Source: a virus
Taxonomy: Duplodnaviria; Heunggongvirae; Uroviricota; Caudoviricetes
Virus record (IMG/VR): IMGVR_UViG_2571042372_000008
DNA length: 15,717 nucleotides
Reading direction: 5' to 3' (one strand)
Below are positions 3,690 through 15,717 of this stretch, piece after piece (position 1 is the stretch's first letter; every line of letters starts with the position of its first letter). The position numbers and the translations under genes are program-made. The notes below the pieces were generated by a model, which had not been told where the DNA came from, made no database searches, and was given only the letters and a program-made list of their open reading frames with translations.

Positions 3690-4471
3690 GCTGCCACCTT
3701 CTGCTCAGTGGCTTTCTGTTTCAGGAATCCAAGAGCTTTCACTGCTTCGGCCTGTGTCAGTTCTGACGATGCGCGAATGTCGCGGCGAAATATCTGGGAA
3801 CAGAGCGGCAATAAGTCGTCATCCCATGTTTTGTCCAGGGCAATCAGCAGAGTGTTAATCTCCTGCATGGTTTCATCGTTAACCGGAGTGATGTCGCGTT
3901 CCGGCTGACGTTCTGCAGTGTATGCGGTATTTTCGACAATGCGCTCGGCTTCATCCTTGTCATAGATACCAGCAAATCCGAAGGCCAGACGGGCACACTG
4001 AATCATGGCTTTATGCCGTAACATCCGTTTGGGATGCGACTGCCACGGCCCCGTGATTTCTCTGCCTTCGCGGGTTTTGAATGGTTCGCGGCGGCATTCA
4101 TCCATCCACTCGGTAACGCAGATCGGATGATTGCGGTCTTTGCGGTAAATCCGGCATGTACATGATTCATTGTCCTGCTCAAAGTCCATACCATCAAACT
4201 GCTGGTTTTCATTGATGATGCGGGACCAGCCATCAACGCCCACCACCGGAACAATGCCGTTCTGCTTATCAGGGAAGGCGTAAATTTCTTTCGTCCACGG
4301 ATTAAGGCCGTACTGGTTGGCGACGATCAACAATGCGATGAACTGCGCATCGCTGGCATCACCTTTAAATGCCGTCTGGCGAAGAGTGGTGATCAGTTCC
4401 TGTGGGTCGACAGAATCCATGCCGACACGTTCAGCCAGCTTCCCTGCCAGCGTTGCGAGTGCTGTACTCAT
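3686..4471 (-). CDS. bet: Red beta single-strand annealing protein
   Basis: 261 aa. [20 protein letters not shown]...[19 protein letters not shown]... matches lambda Beta from memory. Confidence 0.95.
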
Positions 4472-4992: not shown

Positions 4993-5125
4993 TTTTTGGG
5001 ACTCCTGGCTGATTAAGTATGTCGATAAGGCGTTTCCATCCGTCACGTAATTTACGGGTGATTCGTTCAAGTAAAGATTCGGAAGGGCAGCCAGCAACAG
5101 GCCACCCTGCAATGGCATATTGCAT
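4961..5125 (-). CDS. cIII: CIII (FtsH inhibitor that stabilises CII)
   Basis: Hand translation from the ATG at 5123-5125 gives [54 protein letters not shown] (54 aa), near-identical to lambda CIII. It is missing from the ORF track because the overlapping kil-frame ORF was the one listed there. Confidence 0.85.
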   Translation of the reverse strand: MQYAIAGWPVAGCPSESLLERITRKLRDGWKRLIDILNQPGVPKNGSNNYGYPD

Positions 5126-5197
5126 GGTGTGCTCCTTATTTATACATAACGAAAAACGCCTCGAGTGAAGCGTAATTGGTATGCGGTAACGCCGCGC

Positions 5198-6019: not shown

Positions 6020-6162
6020 ATATCACCTTAAATAGTGGATTGCGGTAGTAAAGATTGTGCCTGTCTTTTAACCACATCAGGCTCGGTGGTTCTCGTGTAC
6101 CCCTACAACGAGAAATCGGATAAACTCTATTCACCCCTACAGAGAGCAAAAGAGAAACGCCG

Positions 6163-6744
6163 ATGAACAACTCATGGTGGCAGGAACTAATGCATTTTTT
6201 CCTGCAAGGAATGACACTTAAACAGTTGATTCATATGCTAATCATCCTGATCATATTGATTATTGTTATGCCGGTAAGCGTAAAAGAATGGATAAACCTG
6301 CATAATCCAGAAATCCTTCCTCATTACTGGATGTATTACATCCTGTTGTTTTGCGTTAGCTATGTGCTTAACGGCGTTGTTAATTCCGCTTATCACGCTG
6401 TGACTGAAAGAATTGAGGTATTCGCTGCTCAGAAGCGCAAATCTAAAGAAGAAAAATATGTGCAAGATTTGTTTGATTCGTTAACTCTTGGAGAAAGAGC
6501 GTATTTGGCATTCGCTGTAGCCGCTAATAACCAGCTACAAACGGAAAAGGGCGCTCATGAATCAATTTCATTGCTCAAAAAAGGACTCCTCGTTCGAAGG
6601 CCTCCTGCTGTTGGATATCCTGATACCGACCGTTTCGTTATCCCTGAAAGCTATAGACATGAGTGCTACATTAGGTTTGCCGGGAAGGCAGACAGCCTTA
6701 TGGATGAACTTATCGCTCAGGATAAGCATGGCAAAAACAAGTAA
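6163..6744 (+). CDS. sieB: Superinfection exclusion protein B (SieB)
   Basis: 193-aa ORF with a hydrophobic N-terminal segment (LIHMLIILIILIIVMPVSV). Sits on the opposite strand between ral and N, convergent with N, as lambda and Rac sieB do. Confidence 0.8.
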   Translation: MNNSWWQELMHFFLQGMTLKQLIHMLIILIILIIVMPVSVKEWINLHNPEILPHYWMYYILLFCVSYVLNGVVNSAYHAVTERIEVFAAQKRKSKEEKYVQDLFDSLTLGERAYLAFAVAANNQLQTEKGAHESISLLKKGLLVRRPPAVGYPDTDRFVIPESYRHECYIRFAGKADSLMDELIAQDKHGKNK

Positions 6745-6760
6745 TTAGCAAATGAATTTA

Positions 6761-7033
6761 TCATCTCGCCGTCAGTTGTTTTGATTTCCGGTAGCCTGCC
6801 GCGTAAAGAGCTACGTTCGGAAGACAAGTTGAACCTTCATATTTTCTGGTCAACGTTGTCAGAGTTATCACTTCTGCTCTCATTGCTGGTTTGAGCTTGC
6901 ATTGCAAGACCACTCGTGAAGGGGTTGGCCTGTGTAGCTTGTCGGAGCTGATCGCCTCCTGACTTTGCAGATTTGCGCGACGAGCTCTACGGCGAGAAGC
7001 TGCGGTGCCTTTAAATTCTGTTTTTCTGGACAT
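6761..7033 (-). CDS. N: N-type transcription antitermination protein, P22 gene-24-like rather than lambda-N-like
   Basis: 90 aa from the ATG at 7031-7033, with a GGGAGGA Shine-Dalgarno upstream. Arginine-rich motif GTAASRRRARRANL near the N-terminus. C-terminus LPNVALYAAGYRKSKQLTAR resembles P22 N (...VALYAAGHRKSKQITAR) from memory. The track ORF extends 24 codons further upstream, which I reject. Confidence 0.75.
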   Translation of the reverse strand: MSRKTEFKGTAASRRRARRANLQSQEAISSDKLHRPTPSRVVLQCKLKPAMRAEVITLTTLTRKYEGSTCLPNVALYAAGYRKSKQLTAR

Positions 7034-7131
7034 GGATTCCTCCCGAATAAACTTTGGCGATGCAATCTCGAAGCTCCTCCTGAGACGGTTGCTTCGGCAT
7101 TGCATCCCACAGCTTATGTGGTTGGGTGATC

Positions 7132-7177
7132 TGGCTTTTCAGCCACGTAGTCGAGAGTCGACGTTGTTTAAAGAGCC
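7132..7177 (-). promoter_or_regulatory. nutL: boxA plus boxB hairpin
   Basis: Minus-strand reading GCTCTTTAAACAA (boxA-like, plus 7164-7177) followed by CTGGCT-GAAA-AGCCAG (6-bp stem, GAAA loop; plus 7131-7146). Lies between the predicted pL and the N start. Confidence 0.6.
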
Positions 7178-7222
7178 TGCCAGTCTGTTCCATTTGGCTT
7201 CCAGCGTCCTGCTGACGGTTAA

Positions 7223-7270
7223 ATAGTACGATATGTACTTTACAAGATCAATACAATTTGTTGTAAGTTG
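7223..7270 (-). promoter_or_regulatory. Candidate pL promoter with overlapping OL operator dyads
   Basis: Minus-strand TTGATC (-35, plus 7246-7251), 17-nt spacer, TACTAT (-10, plus 7223-7228). Adjacent dyad TACAACAAATTGTA built from TACAA/TTGTA half-sites. Confidence 0.5.
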
Positions 7271-7440
7271 GCGTGGTTTTTTATAACGCTTTGTATTTAA
7301 TAGTGTTGTTTTTTAGCGTGGATGTATTGCCTCGGCGATGTAAGGAGAGATCAGAATTGCGTGGTTTAGTGGGTTGCATCTATTTATTTTTCAATAAATA
7401 TAATTGGTTATGTGTTTTTAGGTGGGCGAACGTGAGGCAA

Positions 7441-7466
7441 AGAAAACCCGGCGCTGAGGCCGGGTT
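7441..7466 (-). terminator. Intrinsic terminator ending the cI operon (timm-like)
   Basis: CCCGGC-GCTGAG-GCCGGG hairpin starting 3 nt after the stop of the 250-aa gene; on the minus strand it is followed by UUUUCU. Confidence 0.6.
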
Positions 7467-7469
7467 GTA

Positions 7470-8222
7470 TTATGCTGCAAGTCTCTTAACCCAAGTCTCT
7501 CTTTTGGAGAATGGTAGAACTTGGCTTGATTCATGGAAGAGTAAGGAGAGTTGTTGCATTTGATCACCAATTGCTTCGCTGTCTATAACAACAAATCTGT
7601 TGTTATACTCCTCACTTGAAGCTTTAAGATCAATTAGTTTCCCAAGCAATGAGTAAGCACTATTCCAGCTTCCTCCGTGTTTCACGCTTGATGTAAAAAC
7701 GTATTTAGGTATGTCGGTTTTTATTGTTACAGGGACGGTAATTTGATGTCCACTCAAGCCATATACGTTTTCACGAAGAGAAAGTGCGTCTCTAAGCTCT
7801 GTGTGATATAGATAATCAATAACCATACTTTCAAACTTTTCAGCTTGAACTGGCTGATACCAGTCTAACGACAAAGTTGATGCGAGTATACCAGCTCTAA
7901 TTATGTTCGATGTAATCGCACCGACATCCTTTTCTGTTGCCCAAGCAATGATTTCTCCTCGAGCATTGAGTTCTGCGCCTTCTTTAAGCAGTAATTGTCG
8001 TATCTCATCAAGTCGTTTTTTGGTAAGCGAGATCCCTCTTGCCTCCATATTCATTAAGGCATCGCATCTGTCACTAACTAAATACCTACCATTGACTTCA
8101 CGGATAAAGGCACCGACATGCTCTCCATCATCACAGTAAGTGAATGGACTGATAATTCTCAAGGTCTTGCCTATTGGATGGCATTCGAAACCTAGTTGTG
8201 AGATCACTGTTGAGCACATCAT
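7470..8222 (-). CDS. Hypothetical protein (250 aa), distal gene of a two-gene cassette in the rexAB-equivalent slot; function unknown
   Basis: ATG-initiated ORF co-oriented with cI. Its ATG overlaps the stop of the upstream 185-aa ORF (ATGA, 8219-8222) and it is followed directly by a terminator. No transmembrane segment or motif I can name. Confidence 0.6.
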   Translation of the reverse strand: MMCSTVISQLGFECHPIGKTLRIISPFTYCDDGEHVGAFIREVNGRYLVSDRCDALMNMEARGISLTKKRLDEIRQLLLKEGAELNARGEIIAWATEKDVGAITSNIIRAGILASTLSLDWYQPVQAEKFESMVIDYLYHTELRDALSLRENVYGLSGHQITVPVTIKTDIPKYVFTSSVKHGGSWNSAYSLLGKLIDLKASSEEYNNRFVVIDSEAIGDQMQQLSLLFHESSQVLPFSKRETWVKRLAA

Positions 8223-8776
8223 ATTCCAAACCCCATTTGCCCCGACTCATCTTCAAGCGGTAAAGGTATTCTCCCAGAGTAAGTTATGTTCAGATGTTTA
8301 CAGAAGTAATTCCAATACCCTACCAGGCCATCTGGGTTTATGTCATCTTCGATTGGAAACGCTATTCTATCACTATAGTATCCAGCTTCTTCATAGTATA
8401 CATGGTAGTGAGCACCGTAAATGATATCTTGGTACTTCGGATGATCGACCTTGTAACTATTCGTGTGTTTGTCAAAGTGATAGGTATCTACCGCGAAAAC
8501 CCTCTTGTTATGATAGAAAGCAATAATATTTATTTTAGGGTAAGAAATCGGGTCATCAGGTTCTGAATCCTGATCTGGTTTCCATTTCAGTTCAAACTTT
8601 AGCCCTTGTATAGGTATACAATCCTCATCCAAGGGGATGATATGGGCTTGTAGCCACATATCAGAGCGACTTGGTTTCTGTTTCCATTTAACGCCAGAAA
8701 AGTTAACTATTTTTTTACAATAAAGTACTTTATCAACTTCTACTTGGCTTGGCTGATAATCATCTATTTTTGCCAA
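8219..8776 (-). CDS. Hypothetical protein (185 aa from a TTG start; 146 aa if the first ATG is used), proximal gene of the two-gene cassette; function unknown
   Basis: ORF begins 39 nt downstream of the cI stop. The only in-frame start before Met40 is a TTG at 8774-8776, preceded by purine-rich AGGGCGG. Tyrosine- and acid-rich (HYHVYYEEAGYY), no hydrophobic segment. Confidence 0.5.
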   Translation of the reverse strand: MAKIDDYQPSQVEVDKVLYCKKIVNFSGVKWKQKPSRSDMWLQAHIIPLDEDCIPIQGLKFELKWKPDQDSEPDDPISYPKINIIAFYHNKRVFAVDTYHFDKHTNSYKVDHPKYQDIIYGAHYHVYYEEAGYYSDRIAFPIEDDINPDGLVGYWNYFCKHLNITYSGRIPLPLEDESGQMGFGI

Positions 8777-9869: not shown

Positions 9870-9944
9870 ATCTGACCAACTAAGGCCATATGCGTTTCCA
9901 CGCATACCTTTCAACTAACTATTCACTATTGGAAATCTTAAGAA

Positions 9945-10241
9945 ATGGAAAGAACAAGTTACAGCAAACTATCACAGCGTGACGTTGATCGCGCAGAAAC
10001 AGATTTACTTATCAATCTGTCAGCTATTACCCAGCGCGGTCTGGCAAAGATGATTGGCTGTCATGAATCGAAGATAAGCAGAACGGACTGGAGATTTATT
10101 GCTTCGGTCTTGTGTGCTTTCGGAATGGCATCAGACATCAGTCCGATTAGCAGGGCTTTTAAGTATGCGCTTGATGGACTCACCAATAAAAAACGCCCGG
10201 CGGCAACCGAGCGTTCTGAACAAATCCAGATGGAATTCTGA
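9945..10241 (+). CDS. cII: CII-like transcriptional activator, chimeric (C-terminal 20 aa identical to lambda CII)
   Basis: 98-aa ORF at the cII position ending LTNKKRPAATERSEQIQMEF, which is the lambda CII C-terminus from memory. The N-terminal ~78 aa differ from lambda. Confidence 0.7.
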   Translation: MERTSYSKLSQRDVDRAETDLLINLSAITQRGLAKMIGCHESKISRTDWRFIASVLCAFGMASDISPISRAFKYALDGLTNKKRPAATERSEQIQMEF

Positions 10242-10261
10242 GGTCATTACTGGATCAATCC
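10185..10261 (-). ncRNA. oop: oop antisense RNA
   Basis: Minus-strand sequence ...GAUUGAUCCAGUAAUGACCUCAGAAUUCCAUCUGGAUUUGUUCAGAACGCUCGGUUGCCGCCGGGCGUUUUUUAUU matches lambda oop RNA from memory, including the terminator GCCGCCGGGCG plus U-run. 5' end approximate. Confidence 0.6.
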
Positions 10262-10273
10262 ACAGGAGTCATT

Positions 10274-10720
10274 ATGACAAATACAGCAAAAATACTCAAC
10301 TTCTGCAGAGGTAACTTTGCCAAACAGGAGCGTAATGTGGCAGATCTCGATGATGGTTACGCCAGACTATCAAATATGCTGCTTGAGGCTTATTCAGGCG
10401 CAGATCTGACCAAGCGACAGTTTAAAGTGCTGCTTGCCATTCTGCGTAAAACCTATGGATGGAATAAACCAATGGACAGAATCACCGATTCTCAACTTAG
10501 CGAGATTACAAAGTTACCCGTCAAACGGTGCAATGAAGCCAAGTTAGAACTCGTCAGAATGAATATTATCAAGCAGCAAGGCGGCATGTTTGGACCAAAT
10601 AAAAACATCTCAGAATGGTGTATCCCTCAAAACGAGGGAAAATCCCCTAAAACGAGGGATAAAACATCCCTCAAATTGGGGGATTGCTATCCCTCAAAAC
10701 AGGGGGACACAAAAGACTGA
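10274..10720 (+). pseudogene. O: Replication initiator O, truncated after codon 148 by IS insertion; stop codon supplied by the IS terminus
   Basis: MTNTAKILNFCRGNFAKQERNVADLDDGYARLSNMLLEAY... matches the lambda O N-terminal domain from memory. The reading frame runs into TGA at 10718-10720, the first three bases of the IS left inverted repeat. Confidence 0.85.
10623..10707 (+). repeat. ori-lambda iterons (four O-binding repeats)
   Basis: Four direct repeats: TCCCTCAAAACGAGGGA (10623-10639), TCCCCTAAAACGAGGGA (10643-10659), TCCCTCAAATTGGGGGA (10667-10683), TCCCTCAAAACAGGGGGA (10690-10707). The AT-rich ori segment that follows in lambda is replaced by the IS. Confidence 0.8.
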
Positions 10721-10771
10721 ACCGCCCCGGGAATCCTGGAGACTAAACTTCCTGAGAAAGAGGTAAACAGG

Positions 10772-11098
10772 ATGACTAAAAATACTCGTTTTTCCCCCGA
10801 AGTCCGTCAACGGGCAGTCCGTATGGTTCTGGAAAGTCAGAGCGAATATGACTCACAATGGGCGACAATTTGTTCCATTGCTCCAAAGATTGGCTGTACG
10901 CCGGAGACTCTGCGTGTCTGGGTTCGCCAGCATGAGCGGGATACCGGGGGCGGTGATGGAGGGCTCACCACCGCTGAACGTCAGCGTCTGAAAGAGCTGG
11001 AACGTGAAAATCGTGAACTGCGCCGCAGTAACGATATCCTTCGCCAGGCTTCCGCTTATTTTGCGAAGGCGGAGTTCGACCGCCTCTGGAAAAAATGA
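10772..11098 (+). CDS. IS3-family transposase OrfA (HTH/leucine-zipper part)
   Basis: 108 aa, [57 protein letters not shown]..., matches IS629 OrfA from memory. Confidence 0.9.
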
Positions 11099-11985
11099 TG
11101 CCACTGCTGGATAAGCTGCGTGAGCAGTACGGGGTCGGACCGCTATGCAGCGAACTGCATATTGCCCCGTCAACGTATTACCACTGTCAGCAACAGCGAC
11201 ATCATCCGGATAAACGCAGTGCCCGTGCGCAGCGCGATGACTGGCTGAAGAAAGAGATACAGCGCGTATACGATGAAAATCACAAGGTATACGGTGTGCG
11301 TAAAGTCTGGCGTCAGTTGTTACGGGAAGGTATCAGAGTGGCCAGATGCACTGTGGCACGTCTCATGGCGGTTATGGGACTTGCCGGTGTTCTCCGGGGT
11401 AAAAAGGTCCGTACGACCATCAGCCGGAAAGCCGTTGCCGCAGGCGACCGCGTAAACCGTCAGTTCGTGGCAGAACGACCTGACCAGCTGTGGGTGGCTG
11501 ATTTTACTTACGTCAGCACATGGCGGGGCTTCGTCTATGTGGCGTTCATCATTGATGTGTTTGCCGGATACATCGTGGGGTGGCGGGTCTCATCGTCCAT
11601 GGAAACGACATTCGTGCTGGATGCACTGGAGCAGGCGTTATGGGCCCGTCGACCGTCCGGCACGGTCCATCACAGTGATAAAGGTTCTCAGTATGTATCG
11701 CTGGCCTACACACAGCGGCTTAAGGAAGCCGGATTACTGGCATCAACAGGAAGTACAGGCGACTCGTATGACAACGCGATGGCGGAGAGCATCAATGGTC
11801 TTTACAAAGCGGAGGTAATACACCGTAAGAGCTGGAAAAACCGTGCAGAAGTGGAACTGGCCACACTCACGTGGGTGGACTGGTATAACAATCGACGATT
11901 GCTGGAAAGGCTGGGCCATACTCCTCCGGCAGAAGCAGAAAAAGCTTATTATGCTTCCATCGGAAACGATGATCTGGCAGCCTGA
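11095..11985 (+). CDS. IS3-family transposase OrfB (DDE catalytic domain)
   Basis: 296 aa in the -1 frame relative to OrfA, overlapping at ATGA (11095-11098). Integrase-core-like region (WVADFTYV...HHSDKGSQY...DNAMAES). Confidence 0.9.
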
Positions 11986-12107
11986 GTTCACAGATAAAAC
12001 ACTCTCCAGGAAACCCGGGGCGGTTCAGAGATAACAATCAACTAATACTGTTTTGTTGATTTTTGCTTGTAATTGGCGTTCTGGTCTGATTTTTGTGGAG
12101 TAAGTTG

Positions 12108-12491
12108 ATGCGTGATATTCAGATGGTTCTTGAGCGTTGGGGTGCGTGGGCGGCTAATAATCATGAAGATGTGACCTGGTCGTCCATTGCCGCCGGTTTT
12201 AAGGGATTAATTCCTTCAAAAGTAAAATCTCGCCCGCAATGTTGTGACGATGACGCGATGATCATTTGCGGGTGCATGGCCCGTCTGAAAAAGAACAACA
12301 GCGATTTACACGATTTATTAGTAGATTATTATGTATGTGGTATGACATTCATGTCACTGGCAAGTAAGCATTGCTGCTCGGATGGTTATATCGGGAAAAG
12401 GTTACAGAAGGCTGAGGGCATAATTGAAGGGATGTTAATGGCATTAGATATCCGGTTAGATATGGATATCGTTGCTAATAATTCTAATTGA
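12108..12491 (+). CDS. Q: Late-gene antiterminator Q (phage 82 / DLP12 QuuD type)
   Basis: 127 aa from the ATG at 12108, preceded by GGAG; the track ORF begins at an upstream [37 protein letters not shown]... matches DLP12 QuuD / Q82-family from memory. Cys-rich segment [12 protein letters not shown]. Confidence 0.8.
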
Positions 12492-12511
12492 TATGCAATT
12501 GTTTACTAAAA

Positions 12512-12542
12512 GTTATTAAAAATGGGGCGTGGAAACGCCCCC
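12512..12542 (-). terminator. Candidate intrinsic terminator for the porin transcript
   Basis: GGGGCG-TGGAAA-CGCCCC hairpin (12524-12541); on the minus strand it is followed by AUUUUUAAU. Confidence 0.45.
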
Positions 12543-12630
12543 AAAATAAAGGGTAATATATAACAGAAGGTTTATATAGTAAGAAGCAAGGTAGTGCTTC
12601 TAAAGGAAGTGGCTTGAGGGCTCCACTTAT

Positions 12631-12669
12631 ATGTTGCGGAGGCAAAGCCTCCCGCAACATATCTTTTTC
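12631..12669 (+). terminator. Candidate intrinsic terminator for rightward transcription from the Q region (possible tR')
   Basis: 13/14-bp stem ATGTTGCGGAGGC-AAA-GCCTCCCGCAACAT with one bulge, followed by CTTTTT at 12663-12668; ends about 10 nt before the convergent porin stop. Confidence 0.55.
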
Positions 12670-12679
12670 GTAAGTCAGA

Positions 12680-13762
12680 TTAGAACTGATAAACCAGACC
12701 TACAGCGACGATGTCGTCGGTATCAATACCAGCTGTTTTGGTAAACTTACTATCGTCAATTAAGTTGATTTTGTAATCAACAAAAGTGGACATGTTTTTA
12801 TTAAAGTAGTAAGTAGCACCGACATCGACATACTTGACTAAGTCTCGGTCACCATGAACACCAAGGTCTTTACCTTTTGACTGAAGGTAAGCAACAGATG
12901 GACGCAGACCGAAGTCAAACTGATATTGTGCTACTGCTTCAAAGTTTTGTGCTTTGTTTGCAATATGGTTATTACCAAAAACGGTCATATTCTGAGTTTC
13001 AGAATATGTGGTAGCCAGATAGATATTGTTCGCATCATATTTCAGGCCTGCAGCCCATACTTCCGCATTTTTGCCGGAGGCATTGAATTTGCTCTTACCA
13101 TAGGCGACCTGACCGTCAGTGCGATCTGATTTAGCATAGGTTGCACCCACGCCGAATCCTTCATACTCATAAGTAGTGGAGAAACCGAAACCATCACCAT
13201 TGGCTTCAGTTACGTCAGTGCGGTCATTTTTACCCTGATACTGAGCAGCAAAGTTCAGGCCATCGACCAGACCAAAGAAGTCGTTGTTACGATAAGTTGC
13301 AACACCAGTAGTGCGACCAGTCATGAACACATCTGTTTGGGTCCAGGTATCACCACCGAATTCTGGCAGAACGTCAGTCCACGCACCGATGTCGTATGCT
13401 ACACCGTAGTTACGGCCGTAATCGATTGAGCCGTAATCACCAAATTTCAGGCCTGCAAATGCAAGACGGGTTTTGTCTTTGGAAGAACCTTGAGATTCAG
13501 CACGGTTGCCTTTGAATTCATATTCCCACTGACCGAAACCAGTCAGTTGATCGTTGATTTGGGTTTCACCTTTGAAGCCAAGACGGGCATAAGTAGTATC
13601 ACCATCATCTGCATCATTAGAGGAGAAGTAGTGCTTGGCATTAACTTTCCCGTATAGATCCAGCTTGTTACTGTCTTTATTATAAATTTCAGCTGCCTGA
13701 GCAGACATCGCCATCAGTACTGATGCAGCTACAGCAGAAATTGCCACTGTTAATTTTTTCAT
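12680..13762 (-). CDS. Outer-membrane general porin, OmpC/OmpF/PhoE family (NmpC/Lc-like prophage porin)
   Basis: 360 aa from the ATG at 13760-13762. Signal peptide [23 protein letters not shown] then [16 protein letters not shown]..., and C-terminal ...VAVGLVYQF ending in F, typical of 16-strand porins. Matches DLP12 NmpC / PA-2 Lc from memory. The track ORF extends 20 codons upstream. Confidence 0.9.
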
Positions 13763-14189
13763 TGTACGCCCTTTTTTTGAACTATTATTAAAAAATGATG
13801 TCACTGCGCGATAAATATTCATCTAATCAATGTGATTATTTCAAGATGTAAGTTTTAGTTTCTCATTTAATTTGTGAAGTAGATCTCTATTTTTATCTGA
13901 ACCTTTTCTATCTAATCCTATTCATGGCTCTTGTCTGAACAAAAATAAATCTATTAGCTAATTTATATTAATGGCACTTATTTATAAGTGCTCTATAATT
14001 CTTTAGCTTAATTTAAACAAACTAAAAATAACATCGGAAATTATTAACTGGTTATTTGTTGAAGTTTTCTTATGCATTTGTGGTGGTGTTTTGAACACTC
14101 GGTGGCATTCTCACAAATATCATTTAGTAGTTTACGTACGTAAAAAATTGGTTATGCTGTTAAGAGTGGTTACTTCGTCACACAGCTTA

Positions 14190-14219
14190 AACCCGCCGTC
14201 GAGCGGGTTTTTCCATTTT
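14190..14219 (+). terminator. Candidate intrinsic terminator about 130 nt upstream of the holin gene
   Basis: AACCCGC-CGTCGA-GCGGGTT hairpin (14190-14209) followed by TTTTCCATTTTTT. Confidence 0.5.
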
Positions 14220-14350
14220 TTGAGTCTCGATATTAGCTGATAACCCAATACCTGAGTTATTCACTGACTCCGAATCTGTTACGTTTCTGCCTTTATTGCG
14301 ATACGTAGTATCCCCTTAATTTACACCCGCTTTGTCTGCGAGGTGGGGTT

Positions 14351-14566
14351 ATGAAATCCATGGATAAGTTAACAACGGGTGTCGCCTATGGTACCTCAGC
14401 AGGTAGTGCCGGGTACTGGTTTTTACAGTTGCTCGATAAAGTCACGCCCTCACAGTGGGCGGCAATAGGTGTGCTGGGTAGCCTGGTATTTGGCCTGCTG
14501 ACGTACCTGACAAACCTTTATTTCAAGATTAAAGAAGATAAGCGCAAGGCTGCGAGAGGTGAATAA
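14351..14566 (+). CDS. Class II holin, pinholin type (phage 21 S / DLP12 EssD-like) with dual-start motif
   Basis: 71 aa, [26 protein letters not shown]...[35 protein letters not shown]. Two predicted TM segments; Met1 and Met4 separated by a Lys. Stop overlaps the endolysin start (TAATG). Confidence 0.85.
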
Positions 14567-15060
14567 TGCCTCCATCATTACGAAAAGCCGTTGCTGCTAT
14601 TGGTGGCGGAGCAATTGCTATAGCATCAGTGTTAATCACTGGCCCAAGTGGTAACGATGGTCTGGAAGGTGTCAGCTACATACCATACAAAGATATTGTT
14701 GGTGTATGGACTGTATGTCACGGGCATACAGGAAAAGACATCATGCTCGGTAAAACGTATACCAAAGCAGAATGCAAAGCCCTCCTGAATAAAGACCTTG
14801 CCACGGTCGCCAGACAAATTAACCCGTACATCAAAGTCGATATACCGGAAACAATGCGCGGCGCTCTTTACTCATTCGTTTACAACGTGGGTGCTGGCAA
14901 TTTCAGAACATCGACGCTTCTTCGCAAAATAAACCAGGGCGATATCAAAGGCGCATGTGATCAGCTACGTCGCTGGACATATGCTGGCGGTAAGCAATGG
15001 AAAGGTCTCATGACTCGTCGTGAGATTGAGCGTGAAATCTGTTTGTGGGGTCAGCAATGA
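14566..15060 (+). CDS. SAR endolysin (signal-anchor-release lysozyme, phage 21 R / DLP12 RrrD type)
   Basis: 164 aa with an N-terminal Gly/Ala-rich weakly hydrophobic SAR segment ([19 protein letters not shown]) and a lysozyme core. Matches RrrD from memory. Confidence 0.9.
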
Positions 15061-15518
15061 ACAGAGTAACCGCGATTATCTCCGCTCTGGTTATCTGCAT
15101 CATCGTCTGCCTGTCATGGGCTGTTAATCATTACCGTGATAACGCCATTACCTACAAAGCCCAGCGCGACAAAAATGCCAGAGAACTGACGCTGGCGAAC
15201 GCGGTAATTACTGACATACAGATGCGTCAGCGTGATGTTGCTGCGCTCGATGCAAAATACACGAAGGAGTTAGCTGATGCGAAAGCTGAAAATGATGCTC
15301 TGCGTGATGATGTTGCCGCTGGTCGTCGTCGGTTGCACATCAAAGCAGTCTGTCAGTCAGTGCGTGAAGCCACCACCGCCTCCGGCGTGGATAATGCAGC
15401 CTCCCCCCGACTGGCAGACACCGCTGAACGGGATTATTTCACCCTCAGAGAGAGGCTGATCACTATGCAAAAACAACTGGAAGGAACCCAGAAGTATATT
15501 AATGAGCAGTGCAGATAG
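15057..15518 (+). CDS. Rz, inner-membrane spanin subunit
   Basis: 153 aa from the ATG at 15057 (ATGA overlap with the endolysin stop). N-terminal TM segment [20 protein letters not shown] then a coiled-coil-like region. Matches DLP12 RzpD from memory. Confidence 0.8.
15277..15459 (+). CDS. Rz1, outer-membrane lipoprotein spanin subunit, embedded in the +1 frame of Rz
   Basis: 60 aa. AAGGAG Shine-Dalgarno at 15264-15269. Lipobox LVVVGC followed by a proline-rich segment [15 protein letters not shown]. Confidence 0.8.
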
Positions 15519-15549
15519 AGCTGCCCATATCGATGGGCAACTCATGCAA

Positions 15550-15717
15550 TTATTGTGAGCAATACACACGCGCTTCCAGCGGAGTATAAATGCCTAAAGT
15601 AATAAAACCGAGCAATCCATTTACGAATGTTTGCTGGGTTTCTGTTTTAACAACATTTTCTGCACCACCACAAATTTTTGCTGCATCGACAGTTTTCTTC
15701 TGCCCAATTCCCGAAAC
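15550..15717 (-). CDS. bor: Bor-like outer-membrane lipoprotein (serum-resistance lysogenic conversion), 3' part only; the 5' end lies beyond the window
   Basis: Minus-strand translation ...VSGIGQKKTVDAAKICGGAENVVKTETQQTFVNGLLGFITLGIYTPLEARVYCSQ-stop matches the lambda Bor C-terminus from memory. Stop at 15550-15552. Confidence 0.8.
   Translation of the reverse strand, partial: VSGIGQKKTVDAAKICGGAENVVKTETQQTFVNGLLGFITLGIYTPLEARVYCSQ

Follow-up and report, generated by a model that had tools for sequence, protein, structure and literature searches.

IS-anchored loss of replication genes is an ordinary and well-known way of crippling prophages, and DLP12 of Escherichia coli K-12 is a cryptic lambdoid prophage that was immobilised by loss of its replication genes with IS involvement. 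One report regards IS629, IS1203 and IS3411 as isoforms of one another and places 62% of IS629 copies in prophages (PMC3271280). IS629 accounts for many gene inactivations and genomic deletions, IS-adjacent deletions among them (PMC9943667), and two sources report that IS629-adjacent deletions occur with IEE (PMC9943667; bioRxiv 10.1101/2023.06.07.543989). Copy-out-paste-in transposition alone does not predict donor deletions (IEE review, bioRxiv 10.1101/2023.06.07.543989). In the LTEE, 14 of 83 IS events (17%), all of them due to IS150, were IS3-family adjacent deletions in which the IS was kept and no duplication was left, and an OrfAB fusion raises such IS150 adjacent deletions (PMC11708052). 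Here we analysed a 15,717-bp stretch of DNA (hereafter the window; coordinates refer to it, features lie on the plus strand unless stated otherwise, and a slash marks a junction) in which a complete IS of the IS629 group stands in place of the replication genes of a lambdoid prophage. We consider it nearly certain that this arrangement arose when an ancestral, intact prophage underwent a deletion anchored on the IS. Neither the element nor the mechanism is of a new kind, and the event is a known one; the close relatives of the locus, however, show a tidy deletion series around the same element.

The window corresponds to the left arm, from integrase to lysis genes, of the lambdoid Iss/Sit prophage of ExPEC known as "PAI-icd", an island that is integrated at icd in B2 ExPEC and carries iss and sit. 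An arrangement identical to that of the window, with 2 SNPs over 15,717 bp, was found in the independent complete genome FDAARGOS_1301. The retained genes, namely int, xis, exo, bet, gam, N, cI, cro, cII, quuD and the lysis genes essD, rrrD and rzpD, are annotated as intact in that genome, with protein accessions mostly equal to those of UTI89, which confirms an earlier statement, made from the bare sequence, that the immunity region, the red genes and the lysis cassette were kept. The gene kil is also kept, and structural genes are located downstream of the window region in the nearly identical FDAARGOS_1301 prophage. Upstream of O, the intact cII was identified at 9945–10241 (Pfam Phage_CII, 7e-34; a CII family regulator in FDAARGOS_1301), and the intact late antiterminator gene quuD (Q) lies at 12108–12491, 80 bp downstream of the IS (Pfam Phage_antitermQ, 6.7e-54; WP_001204776.1 in relatives). 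Between Q and the lysis genes, an ompC/nmpC-like porin moron is retained on the minus strand (12680–13762, mapped from the FDAARGOS_1301 annotation), followed by the retained lysis cassette at 14351–15518 (essD 14351–14566, rrrD 14566–15060, rzpD 15057–15518). The right arm of DLP12 has the same gene set (quuD, an nmpC/ompC-like porin, essD, rrrD, rzpD and a bor/iss-like gene). Compared with DLP12, the window prophage is far less decayed, as it has int/xis, red, the full immunity switch and, in FDAARGOS_1301, the structural genes.

Relatives free of the IS include UTI89, APEC O18 and the viable phage PhiR63_2, which share ~99.9–100% identity with the window outside the IS (left arm, 99.97% for UTI89 and 99.98% for PhiR63_2; right arm, ~99.9%). 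A 3-bp deletion in rrrD of the window serves as a sub-lineage marker. The same marker is present in APEC O18 and MS20655, both of which are IS-free and have O-P-ren-nin-quuD intact, and the ancestor of the window sub-lineage was therefore intact.

Comparisons of repeats, flanks and copies delimited the IS at 10718–12027 as a complete IS3-family element of the IS629/IS1203/IS3411 group, 1310 bp in length and without a target-site duplication; family and size are as the sequence-only reading had proposed. It is annotated in FDAARGOS_1301 as 'IS3 family transposase, programmed frameshift' (WP_151327001.1). The termini TGAACC...GGTTCA and the length fit the 5′-TG...CA-3′ ends and the 1.2–1.5 kb size range of the IS3 family. 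The terminal inverted repeats, found as an inverted-repeat pair with IRL at 10718–10742 and IRR at 12003–12027, are 25 nt long and match at 23 of 25 positions (TGAACCGCCCCGGGAATCCTGGAGA versus TGAACCGCCCCGGGTTTCCTGGAGA). They had been described as imperfect, which is correct, and as 24 bp long, which differs trivially from the 25 nt with two mismatches found here; the 26-nt arms reported by the repeat finder include one chance flanking base pair. According to the ORF list and Pfam, orfA (10772–11098, 108 aa, HTH_Tnp_1) is followed by orfB (11095–11985, 296 aa, HTH_21 and rve DDE integrase core), and the two overlap at an A6 slippery run (11090–11095) with orfB in the −1 phase, as in the IS3 family. 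An ALIL pseudoknot (RF01497), a stimulator of −1 frameshifting, was detected at full length at 11053–11169 (Rfam 120.2 bits, gathering score 50, E 2.6e-31).

With orfA, orfB and ALIL present and 0 differences from an annotated functional copy, the IS in the window is intact. It is identical at 1310/1310 positions to copies in CFT073 and other genomes and is therefore not a chance pattern. Its terminal segments are ~95–97% identical to copies labelled as IS1203 or IS629 family in RefSeq, and it differs from the copy in an O103:H2 STEC at 55 of 1310 positions (~96% identity). The IS matches at 12–13 places in the matching genome, which shows that it is multicopy. The copies compared across the prophage lineage were all identical or differed by no more than a single base or a length change of 1 bp, so that a chimeric IS would not be recognisable. 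The window shares the IS group, the 1310-bp length and the orfA/orfB organisation with ALIL with the IS629/IS1203/IS3411 elements of EHEC O157. It differs from that system in its ExPEC-type B2 host and in its prophage, which is the Iss/Sit PAI-icd prophage and not an Stx or O157 Sp prophage; iee is the cofactor implicated in the O157 system.

The truncated initiator gene O′ (10274–10720) comprises 148 codons and a TGA stop that is formed by the first three bases of the IS. Its product is identical to residues 1–148 of the 299-aa O protein of UTI89 and keeps only the N-terminal iteron-binding domain (Pfam Phage_rep_O, 1.4e-36, residues 22–115). Four lambda-type ori iterons (10622–10708) are found within the gene as direct repeats at 10622–10641, 10642–10661, 10666–10685 and 10689–10708, and the IS starts 9 bp past the fourth. 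The combination of the Phage_rep_O N-terminal domain with four in-gene iterons is that of the lambda ori/O/P module, and relatives of the window have P and ren directly downstream, whereas the window is devoid of the AT-rich unwinding region, the C-terminal P-recruiting half of O and P. From the breakpoint, UTI89 reads on as ACTATTACAAAAGAAAAAAGAAAAG..., and this AT-rich half of ori is absent from the window; no P gene was found in the window or in the remaining prophage of the matching genome. Several claims of the sequence-only reading are thereby borne out: O is cut at codon 148 (ORF 10274–10720) with a TGA supplied by IS bases 1–3, the IS lies right after the fourth iteron (a gap of 9 bp), and the C-terminal domain of O, the AT-rich half of ori, P, ren and the nin region are missing, all within a 3707-bp block that is present in IS-free relatives.

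Since the prophage has lost half of ori, all of P and the half of O that binds P, lambda biology implies that lambda-type replication would be impossible, as the sequence-only reading had proposed, and the ori defect would not be complementable because it acts in cis. With the cis-acting origin and the replication genes lost, the prophage could presumably no longer amplify or spread, which makes the locus a clean and fully delimited case of an IS that immobilises a prophage with virulence genes (iss, and sitABCD further along the island), in which the cargo, the switch and the lysis genes remain. SOS induction could still excise the prophage and kill the cell without a burst, because int/xis, the cI-cro-N switch, kil, Q and the lysis genes are kept.

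At the left junction, GAC/TGA (10715–10720), O is retained up to base 10717 and the IS begins at base 10718. At the right junction, TCA/GAG (12025–12030), the final TCA of the IS equals the triplet preceding GAG in IS-free relatives, which amounts to a 3-bp microhomology. The locus reads ...AAAAGAC/IS/GAGATAAC..., with GAC on the left, GAG on the right and no target-site duplication. Other copies of the same IS do have a duplication (GGT in CFT073, CTC in MS 196-1, GCT in AHB12, GCGC in FY26/BEN5202 and GAC in O103:H2 FWSEC0007), and its absence in the window therefore points to a later rearrangement and does not count against membership in IS3. The right flank consists of the 80-bp quuD leader and then quuD. 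In the IS-free UTI89, both flanks are contiguous native sequence 3707 bp apart; in PhiR63_2 their separation is 4419 bp, with an extra IS200-family insert. Relative to UTI89, the window is missing one contiguous block, locus L016 9892–13598 (3707 bp), which ends 5 bp beyond ylcG and takes in O codons 149–299, the AT-rich part of ori, P, ren and the genes from ninB to ylcG. These results agree with the earlier observations that the flanking triplets GAC and GAG do not match and that the right flank is the region upstream of Q and not the rest of O, and the alignment to related prophages that had been proposed has defined the deleted interval. A consensus scan of the IS–quuD joint revealed no outward hybrid promoter able to drive Q.

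The junctions were then surveyed as exact single-piece matches in 5426 complete genomes. The right junction IS/GAGATAAC (IS/quuD) was present in 7 of them, in combination with four kinds of left junction: O′ codon 148, gam′, exo′ and, in 4 genomes, bet′. A single genome had the O′/IS junction of the window. The shared IS/quuD junction with four left ends shows that at least some of the deletions began from a resident IS copy. Further duplication-less pairs surround the same IS, in the same orientation, in this prophage. FY26 and NCTC11151 have matches to the flanks of the window at equal spacing, and FY26, the one of the two that was examined, reads O′552/IS/′ninX; the other pairs are int′/IS/′ninB (at two positions), int′/IS/sieB and IS66′/IS/′ninX. 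The IS had been said to be inserted at the ori iterons; its location there is correct, but it may equally have landed upstream of quuD and deleted leftwards into O, given IS/quuD in 7 genomes and O′/IS in one. A search for other IS copies and for the reciprocal junction had likewise been suggested: the copies were found (12–13 places in the matching genome), whereas the junctions expected of simple-insertion parents (...AAGTCAGAG/IS-left and IS-right/GACACTATT...) occurred in none of the 5426 genomes. On its left side, a simple insertion upstream of quuD would read GTATGAAGTCAGAG/TGAACCGCCCCGGG, and a simple insertion in O would read CCGGGGCGGTTCA/GACACTATTACAAAAG on its right side. Simple insertions of the same IS in this region were found in O (9 bp off, in O103:H2), in the ren–ninB spacer and in rusA, and several further genomes have the IS inside O, inside ren/ninB or close to ren/ninB. 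The right arm shared by the seven IS/quuD genomes has essentially no informative variation, and its SNPs are too few to put these genomes in order.

The ancestor was an IS-free, intact prophage of the kind found in UTI89 or APEC O18 and in the viable phage PhiR63_2. We propose that an active copy of the IS629/IS1203/IS3411 group entered the early-right operon, and that the 3707 bp from O codon 148 to 80 bp upstream of quuD were then removed with the IS kept. The most likely route, in our view, is adjacent deletion that depends on the transposase, in one or two rounds. In this reaction an end of the IS becomes joined to a site close by on the same DNA molecule, which leaves the IS between the non-matching triplets GAC and GAG. 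We infer the transposase dependence and the order of events, which may equally run either way: the IS could have landed in O and deleted rightwards, or landed upstream of quuD and deleted leftwards. Three features of the locus are those expected of adjacent deletion, namely an IS with complete ends exactly at the deletion joint without a duplication, native flanks that lie on either side of the lost block in IS-free relatives, and nested deletions around one IS that share the IS/quuD junction and differ in their left ends. The IS150 deletions of the LTEE, which range from 14 bp to 49 kb, likewise keep the IS at the joint without a duplication (PMC11708052). They differ from the present case in that they were recorded in real time from known ancestors and involve IS150, whereas the ancestor and the order of events of the window come from comparative genomics and its IS belongs to another IS3 subgroup.

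Transposase-driven adjacent deletion, rather than recombination between IS copies, has in our estimate about an even chance of being the actual route; the sequence-only reading had already named these two mechanisms, and they are indeed the leading ones. In the second, two simple insertions in the same orientation, one in O (GAC) and one upstream of quuD (GAG), would have been followed by RecA recombination that excised 3.7 kb together with one IS. Under this model exactly such hybrid flanks, GAC...GAG, would be expected, and recombination between IS copies is a documented and frequent cause of missing duplications (PMC11708052). Insertions of a second copy are plausible, because the IS hits the region as simple insertions and matches at 12–13 places in the matching genome: in O103:H2 FWSEC0007 a duplication-flanked insertion, also with GAC, lies 9 bp upstream in O, other IS insertions are found in O, in or near ren/ninB and in rusA, and FY26 has three IS copies inside one prophage. 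The model, however, needs a fresh insertion in the same orientation for each of the four left junctions and for every other pair, neither parental junction is present in the 5426 complete genomes, and no two-copy, duplication-flanked intermediate was seen among the genomes surveyed. Inverted IS copies a few kb off in the prophages of FY26, BEN5202 and AHB12 keep their own duplications and hence have not recombined with the plus-strand copy. None of these points is decisive; the missing parental junctions are absence of evidence only, and two-copy intermediates could perhaps be too short-lived for a sample of this size. Adjacent deletion and RecA recombination between direct copies would not be separated by sequence, because each leaves one IS with non-matching flanks and the copies are near-identical. 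On balance, adjacent deletion appears favoured, and recombination between two copies is a substantial possibility that we place somewhat below even.

A one-step event, in which the IS arrived at the very moment of the deletion, without a prior resident copy or strand transfer into a staggered target cut, seems improbable. The IS would have been captured into a double-strand break, or MMEJ or template switching would have occurred during copy-out replication (IEE-type). The 3-bp microhomology at the right junction (IS ...GGTTCA versus ancestral ...AAGTCA/GAG) is in keeping with such an origin, as is microhomology of at least 2 bp at 4 of 14 deletion junctions of this IS in the prophage family against ~0.9 expected (binomial p = 0.009, uncorrected, in a small sample with a test chosen after the data were seen). 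It has been proposed that IS elements insert into breaks in the course of rearrangements (PMC11708052), and IEE acts with IS629 as an MMEJ polymerase (PMC9943667). Against this, microhomology is 0 bp at the left junction of the window and absent at 8 of the 14 junctions of this IS, and the shared IS/quuD junction with its four left ends shows that some deletions started from a resident copy. Still less credible, to the point of being nearly discounted, is an origin without any deletion, through a natural mosaic plus a simple insertion with a mutated duplication, or through assembly collapse across IS copies. GAC and GAG do differ at one position only, and misjoins classically arise at repeated IS copies, but both flanks are native and contiguous in IS-free relatives, 3707 bp apart. 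The same arrangement (2 SNPs) in the independently assembled complete genome FDAARGOS_1301 shows that it is not an assembly artefact, and the right junction recurs in 7 complete genomes. A deletion followed by a later insertion with a mutated duplication was rejected, as GAC is native to O and GAG to the quuD leader.

The PAI-icd prophage of CFT073 (NC_004431, 1.40–1.45 Mb) is similar to the window in its 99.1–99.9% identity and in its IS, which is 100% identical and has the same orientation in the same early-right operon. It differs in that its IS is flanked by a GGT duplication, as a simple insertion into a terminator-like ren–ninB hairpin, and O, P, ren and nin are intact. The CFT073 copy is not demonstrated to be the ancestor of the window IS, and the ren/IS/ninB insertion is unsupported in that role: it occurs in CFT073 assemblies only, and the window sub-lineage itself includes intact prophages without the IS. 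Two candidates for a nested 'IS/ylcG' member were also rejected, as the insertion in MS 196-1 is a simple one into rusA of another prophage, flanked by a CTC duplication, and KH_005 has an IS remnant only.

The relatives, comprising the intact ancestor, viable phages, the junction shared with four partners and the nearby simple insertions, form a natural series of modest practical use, both for weighing adjacent deletion against recombination between IS copies in prophage decay and for typing ST95-like sub-lineages. A broader and rather doubtful reading is that a single resident IS629-group copy might act as a recurrent transposase-driven 'eraser' in the PAI-icd prophage, making successive one-sided deletions from both ends, some of them using 2–3 bp of microhomology. 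The O′/IS/quuD form would then be the earliest surviving stage, later stages (gam′, bet′, exo′, int′) would have lost the immunity and kil regions, and selection against a still-lethal, non-replicating prophage would drive the stepwise fixation of the iss/sit island. If this were true, the series would document in nature the adjacent-deletion reaction of the IS3 family, which is poorly understood.

The truncated O gene (O') forms a reading frame of 148 residues at 10274-10720 with a strong Phage_rep_O match, and its TGA stop consists of bases 1-3 of the IS. The repeat finder placed the four ori iterons at 10622-10708, so that, from the end coordinate of iteron 4, the IS starts 9 bp downstream. 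These ORF and repeat maps bear out the sequence-only reading that the IS directly follows the fourth iteron and ends O at codon 148 with a stop of its own. The flanks read ...AAAAGAC, then the IS, then GAGATAAC...; since GAC on the left differs from GAG on the right, there is no target-site duplication, and re-inspection of the two triplets upheld this earlier claim. The right flank is, as had been proposed, the upstream region of a Q gene: the leader of quuD, encoding a Q-family antiterminator (12108-12491, starting 80 bases right of the IS), stands there instead of the 3' half of O.

Alignment to related prophages defined the missing interval. UTI89 carries the same prophage with no IS in the early-right operon (identity to the window 99.97% in the left arm and 99.89% in the right arm), and there the window flanks are separated by 3707 bp (L016, the UTI89 locus, 9892-13598). 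The lost block comprises O codons 149-299, the AT-rich part of ori, which begins exactly at the breakpoint, and P, ren, ninB, an adenine methyltransferase gene, ninE, ninX, a ybcO remnant, rusA and ylcG, with the right endpoint 5 bp past ylcG; the predicted loss of the O C-terminal part, the AT-rich ori half, P, ren and the nin region was thereby confirmed. Outside the IS the window is matched by the isolated phages PhiR63_2 (100.0%) and ev207 (99.7%), in which the missing block is present, showing that the intact form is a working phage. APEC O18 and MS20655 carry the same 3-bp deletion in the lysis gene rrrD as the window, yet lack the IS and are intact from O to quuD, so this sub-lineage arose from an immediate ancestor that was itself intact. 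The deletion is real, recent and exactly bounded.

The element itself (10718-12027) is 1310 bp long, as first described, and its termini are 25-nt inverted repeats with 2 mismatches (24 bp had been claimed); the arms given by the repeat finder (26 nt, 92%) are longer by a chance match between the bases on either side. It contains orfA (10772-11098; 108 aa, Pfam HTH_Tnp_1) and orfB (11095-11985; 296 aa, HTH_21 and the rve DDE core), which overlap at an A6 run (11090-11095), and a full-length Rfam ALIL frameshift pseudoknot (11053-11169; 120 bits, gathering score 50). All structural features tested fit an IS3-family element of the IS629/IS1203/IS3411 group, whose three namesakes are regarded as isoforms (PMC3271280). 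RefSeq annotates the locus as a truncated replication protein beside an IS3 transposase. The absent duplication is a trace of rearrangement and no argument against IS3-family membership.

Other copies of the IS were found by searching, and the simple insertions among them have duplications of 3-4 bp: GGT in CFT073 (ren/ninB), CTC in MS 196-1 (rusA), GCT in AHB12, GCGC near iss in FY26 and BEN5202, and GAC in O of O103:H2 FWSEC0007. The window copy has none. Junction-specific searches of 5426 complete genomes, counting exact single-piece matches, found the left O'-IS junction only in FDAARGOS_1301 and the right junction (IS, GAGATAAC..., quuD) in seven genomes, each with the rrrD marker and also a short iss allele. 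Their left partners are of four kinds: O' codon 148 in FDAARGOS_1301, as in the window, gam' in AH20K059, bet' in MS8345, FDAARGOS_1300, FDAARGOS_1302 and APEC E19019, and exo' in AHB12. Other strains with this prophage have further duplication-free junction pairs around this IS, again in that orientation: int'-IS-'ninB at two different positions (AH19K002, MS20673), int'-IS-sieB (a second copy in FY26) and IS66'-IS-'ninX (BEN5202). FY26 and NCTC11151 matched the window flanks at equal spacing; of the two, FY26 was examined and has O'552, IS, 'ninX. One fixed IS junction facing a ladder of different partners is the classic picture of IS-anchored deletion.

The FY26 prophage has three IS copies (L003, the FY26 locus, 921-2230, 6927-8236 and 13051-14362). 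Two, on the + strand, each lie at a duplication-free deletion (int' to sieB; O'552 to 'ninX), and one, on the - strand near iss, keeps its GCGC duplication intact; the immunity region survives as an island flanked by two IS copies.

Three routes yield an identical product: adjacent deletion, recombination between IS copies, and one-step capture or microhomology joining. The first two, which are those named in the sequence-only reading, lead here. We give roughly even chances to transposase-driven adjacent deletion, in which a resident copy would remove neighbouring DNA while being retained. The process is documented for the IS3 family: among 83 IS events in three LTEE populations, 14 were IS-retaining, duplication-free deletions, all 14 involving IS150, and an OrfAB fusion raises such events (PMC11708052); IS629-adjacent deletions with the IEE protein are reported for O157 (PMC9943667; bioRxiv 10.1101/2023.06.07.543989).

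RecA recombination between two direct copies, each from a simple insertion, is a somewhat less probable explanation, towards which the FWSEC0007 insertion, 9 bp upstream of the window's left junction and after the same GAC, and the IS copies in O, ren, the ren-ninB spacer and rusA of other genomes all point. However, neither parental junction, at the O site or at the quuD-leader site, turned up in the 5426 complete genomes when the reciprocal junction was sought, and the two-copy intermediate was not seen. This route would also require a separate same-orientation insertion for each of many junction pairs, and the inverted copies lying a few kb off have each retained a duplication without giving rise to inversions. 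These points do not settle the matter, since intermediates could be short-lived and the IS copies are all identical. One-step capture or microhomology-mediated joining is improbable for the window: 3 bp (TCA) are shared by the IS terminus and the ancestral sequence at the right junction (12025-12030), but the left junction has zero microhomology. Across the family, 4 of 14 deletion junctions have 2-3 bp of microhomology against about 0.9 expected (binomial p = 0.009, post hoc and uncorrected, including for base composition), a possible sign that end joining or template switching took part in some of the deletions.

For the site where the IS first landed, two histories are equally parsimonious, each needing as many events as the other. 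The IS may have inserted after the iterons and deleted rightward, the window form then being the ancestor of those ending in gam', bet' and exo', or it may have inserted upstream of quuD, with several leftward deletions following. The shared arms of the compared genomes contained no SNPs able to order them. The sequence-only observation, including the position of the IS beside iteron 4, is thus confirmed and its interpretation supported, with a single reservation: insertion at the iterons is one of the two histories.

In lambda, the N-terminal domain of O binds the iterons, its C-terminal part recruits P-DnaB, and unwinding begins at the adjoining AT-rich region. Since this module is reduced in the window to the iterons and the N-terminal domain of O, autonomous replication should be impossible, and because the origin defect acts in cis, a helper could not rescue it. 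In FDAARGOS_1301, int, xis, exo, bet, gam, N, cI and cro share protein accessions with UTI89, and the annotation gives quuD and the lysis genes as intact, with rrrD minus one codon. Induction could therefore still excise the prophage and kill the cell if N-modified transcription crosses the IS into quuD; no new promoter was evident at the IS-quuD joint. Such residual lethality is a plausible, if speculative, selective reason for the larger deletions in sister strains. What happened here is one more case of prophage decay linked to an IS, a process well described from IS629 in EHEC and from IS150 in experimental evolution; our analysis adds an exact 3707-bp interval, an intact ancestor, viable phage relatives and a nested deletion series.

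The replication region is hit in other ways as well. S88 has lost 67 bp (L017, its locus, about 9920-9940; window 10620-10686), evidently by iteron-iteron recombination, which removed three of the four iterons and frameshifted O; this is a second, IS-independent knock-out route for the replication module in the same lineage. The FWSEC0007 copy (L013, its locus, 6088-7397; window 10708/10709) is IS629-type, with 55 differences over 1310 positions, and sits at the very end of iteron 4. Several other genomes have the IS elsewhere in O, and the iteron/AT-rich boundary and O generally look like recurrent IS targets. Mobile elements also repeatedly land in the short ren-ninB spacer, which has a terminator-like hairpin (AGGCCTGCAGGTAATCGCAGGCCTTTTT): the CFT073 copy (L001, its locus, 14297-15606) lies inside the hairpin, and the viable phage PhiR63_2 has an IS200-family element in the spacer (L019, its locus, 12489-12947). 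IS629-type copies lie within or close to ren in O145:H28, among others.

E. coli FDAARGOS_1301 matches the full window with two mismatches, at 3698 and at 10136 within cII, whose accession in FDAARGOS_1301 differs from that of UTI89; the window's strain is thus a very close, non-identical sibling. The window begins at the integrase adjoining icd and belongs to the lambdoid prophage that is listed under the name 'PAI-icd' (Iss, Sit system) for 536, CFT073, UTI89, RS218, IHE3034, S88, APEC O1 and LF82 (PMC7545054). Shifting the FDAARGOS_1301 annotation by the alignment offset gave the contents of the window as int, xis, exo, bet, gam, kil, cIII, ral, sieB, N, a two-gene insert at the rex position, cI, cro, cII, O', the IS, quuD, an ompC/nmpC-like porin gene, essD, rrrD and rzpD. 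Lambda carries rexA/rexB between cI and N; the window has there two co-oriented genes (7470-8776, - strand), whose products are a 250-aa DUF1828 protein and a 185-aa hypothetical protein; the pair may form an exclusion or defence module, and sieB (6163-6744, + strand) is nearby. The porin gene (12680-13822, - strand), a moron kept in every relative examined, lies between quuD and the lysis cassette, as in DLP12. The cIII leader contains a full-length Rfam Lambda_thermo element, the cIII thermoregulator RNA (5080-5138, - strand; 88.5 bits), and a small zapA-like gene (about 2378-2589, - strand) is annotated as frameshifted in FDAARGOS_1301, UTI89, S88 and the other close relatives examined.
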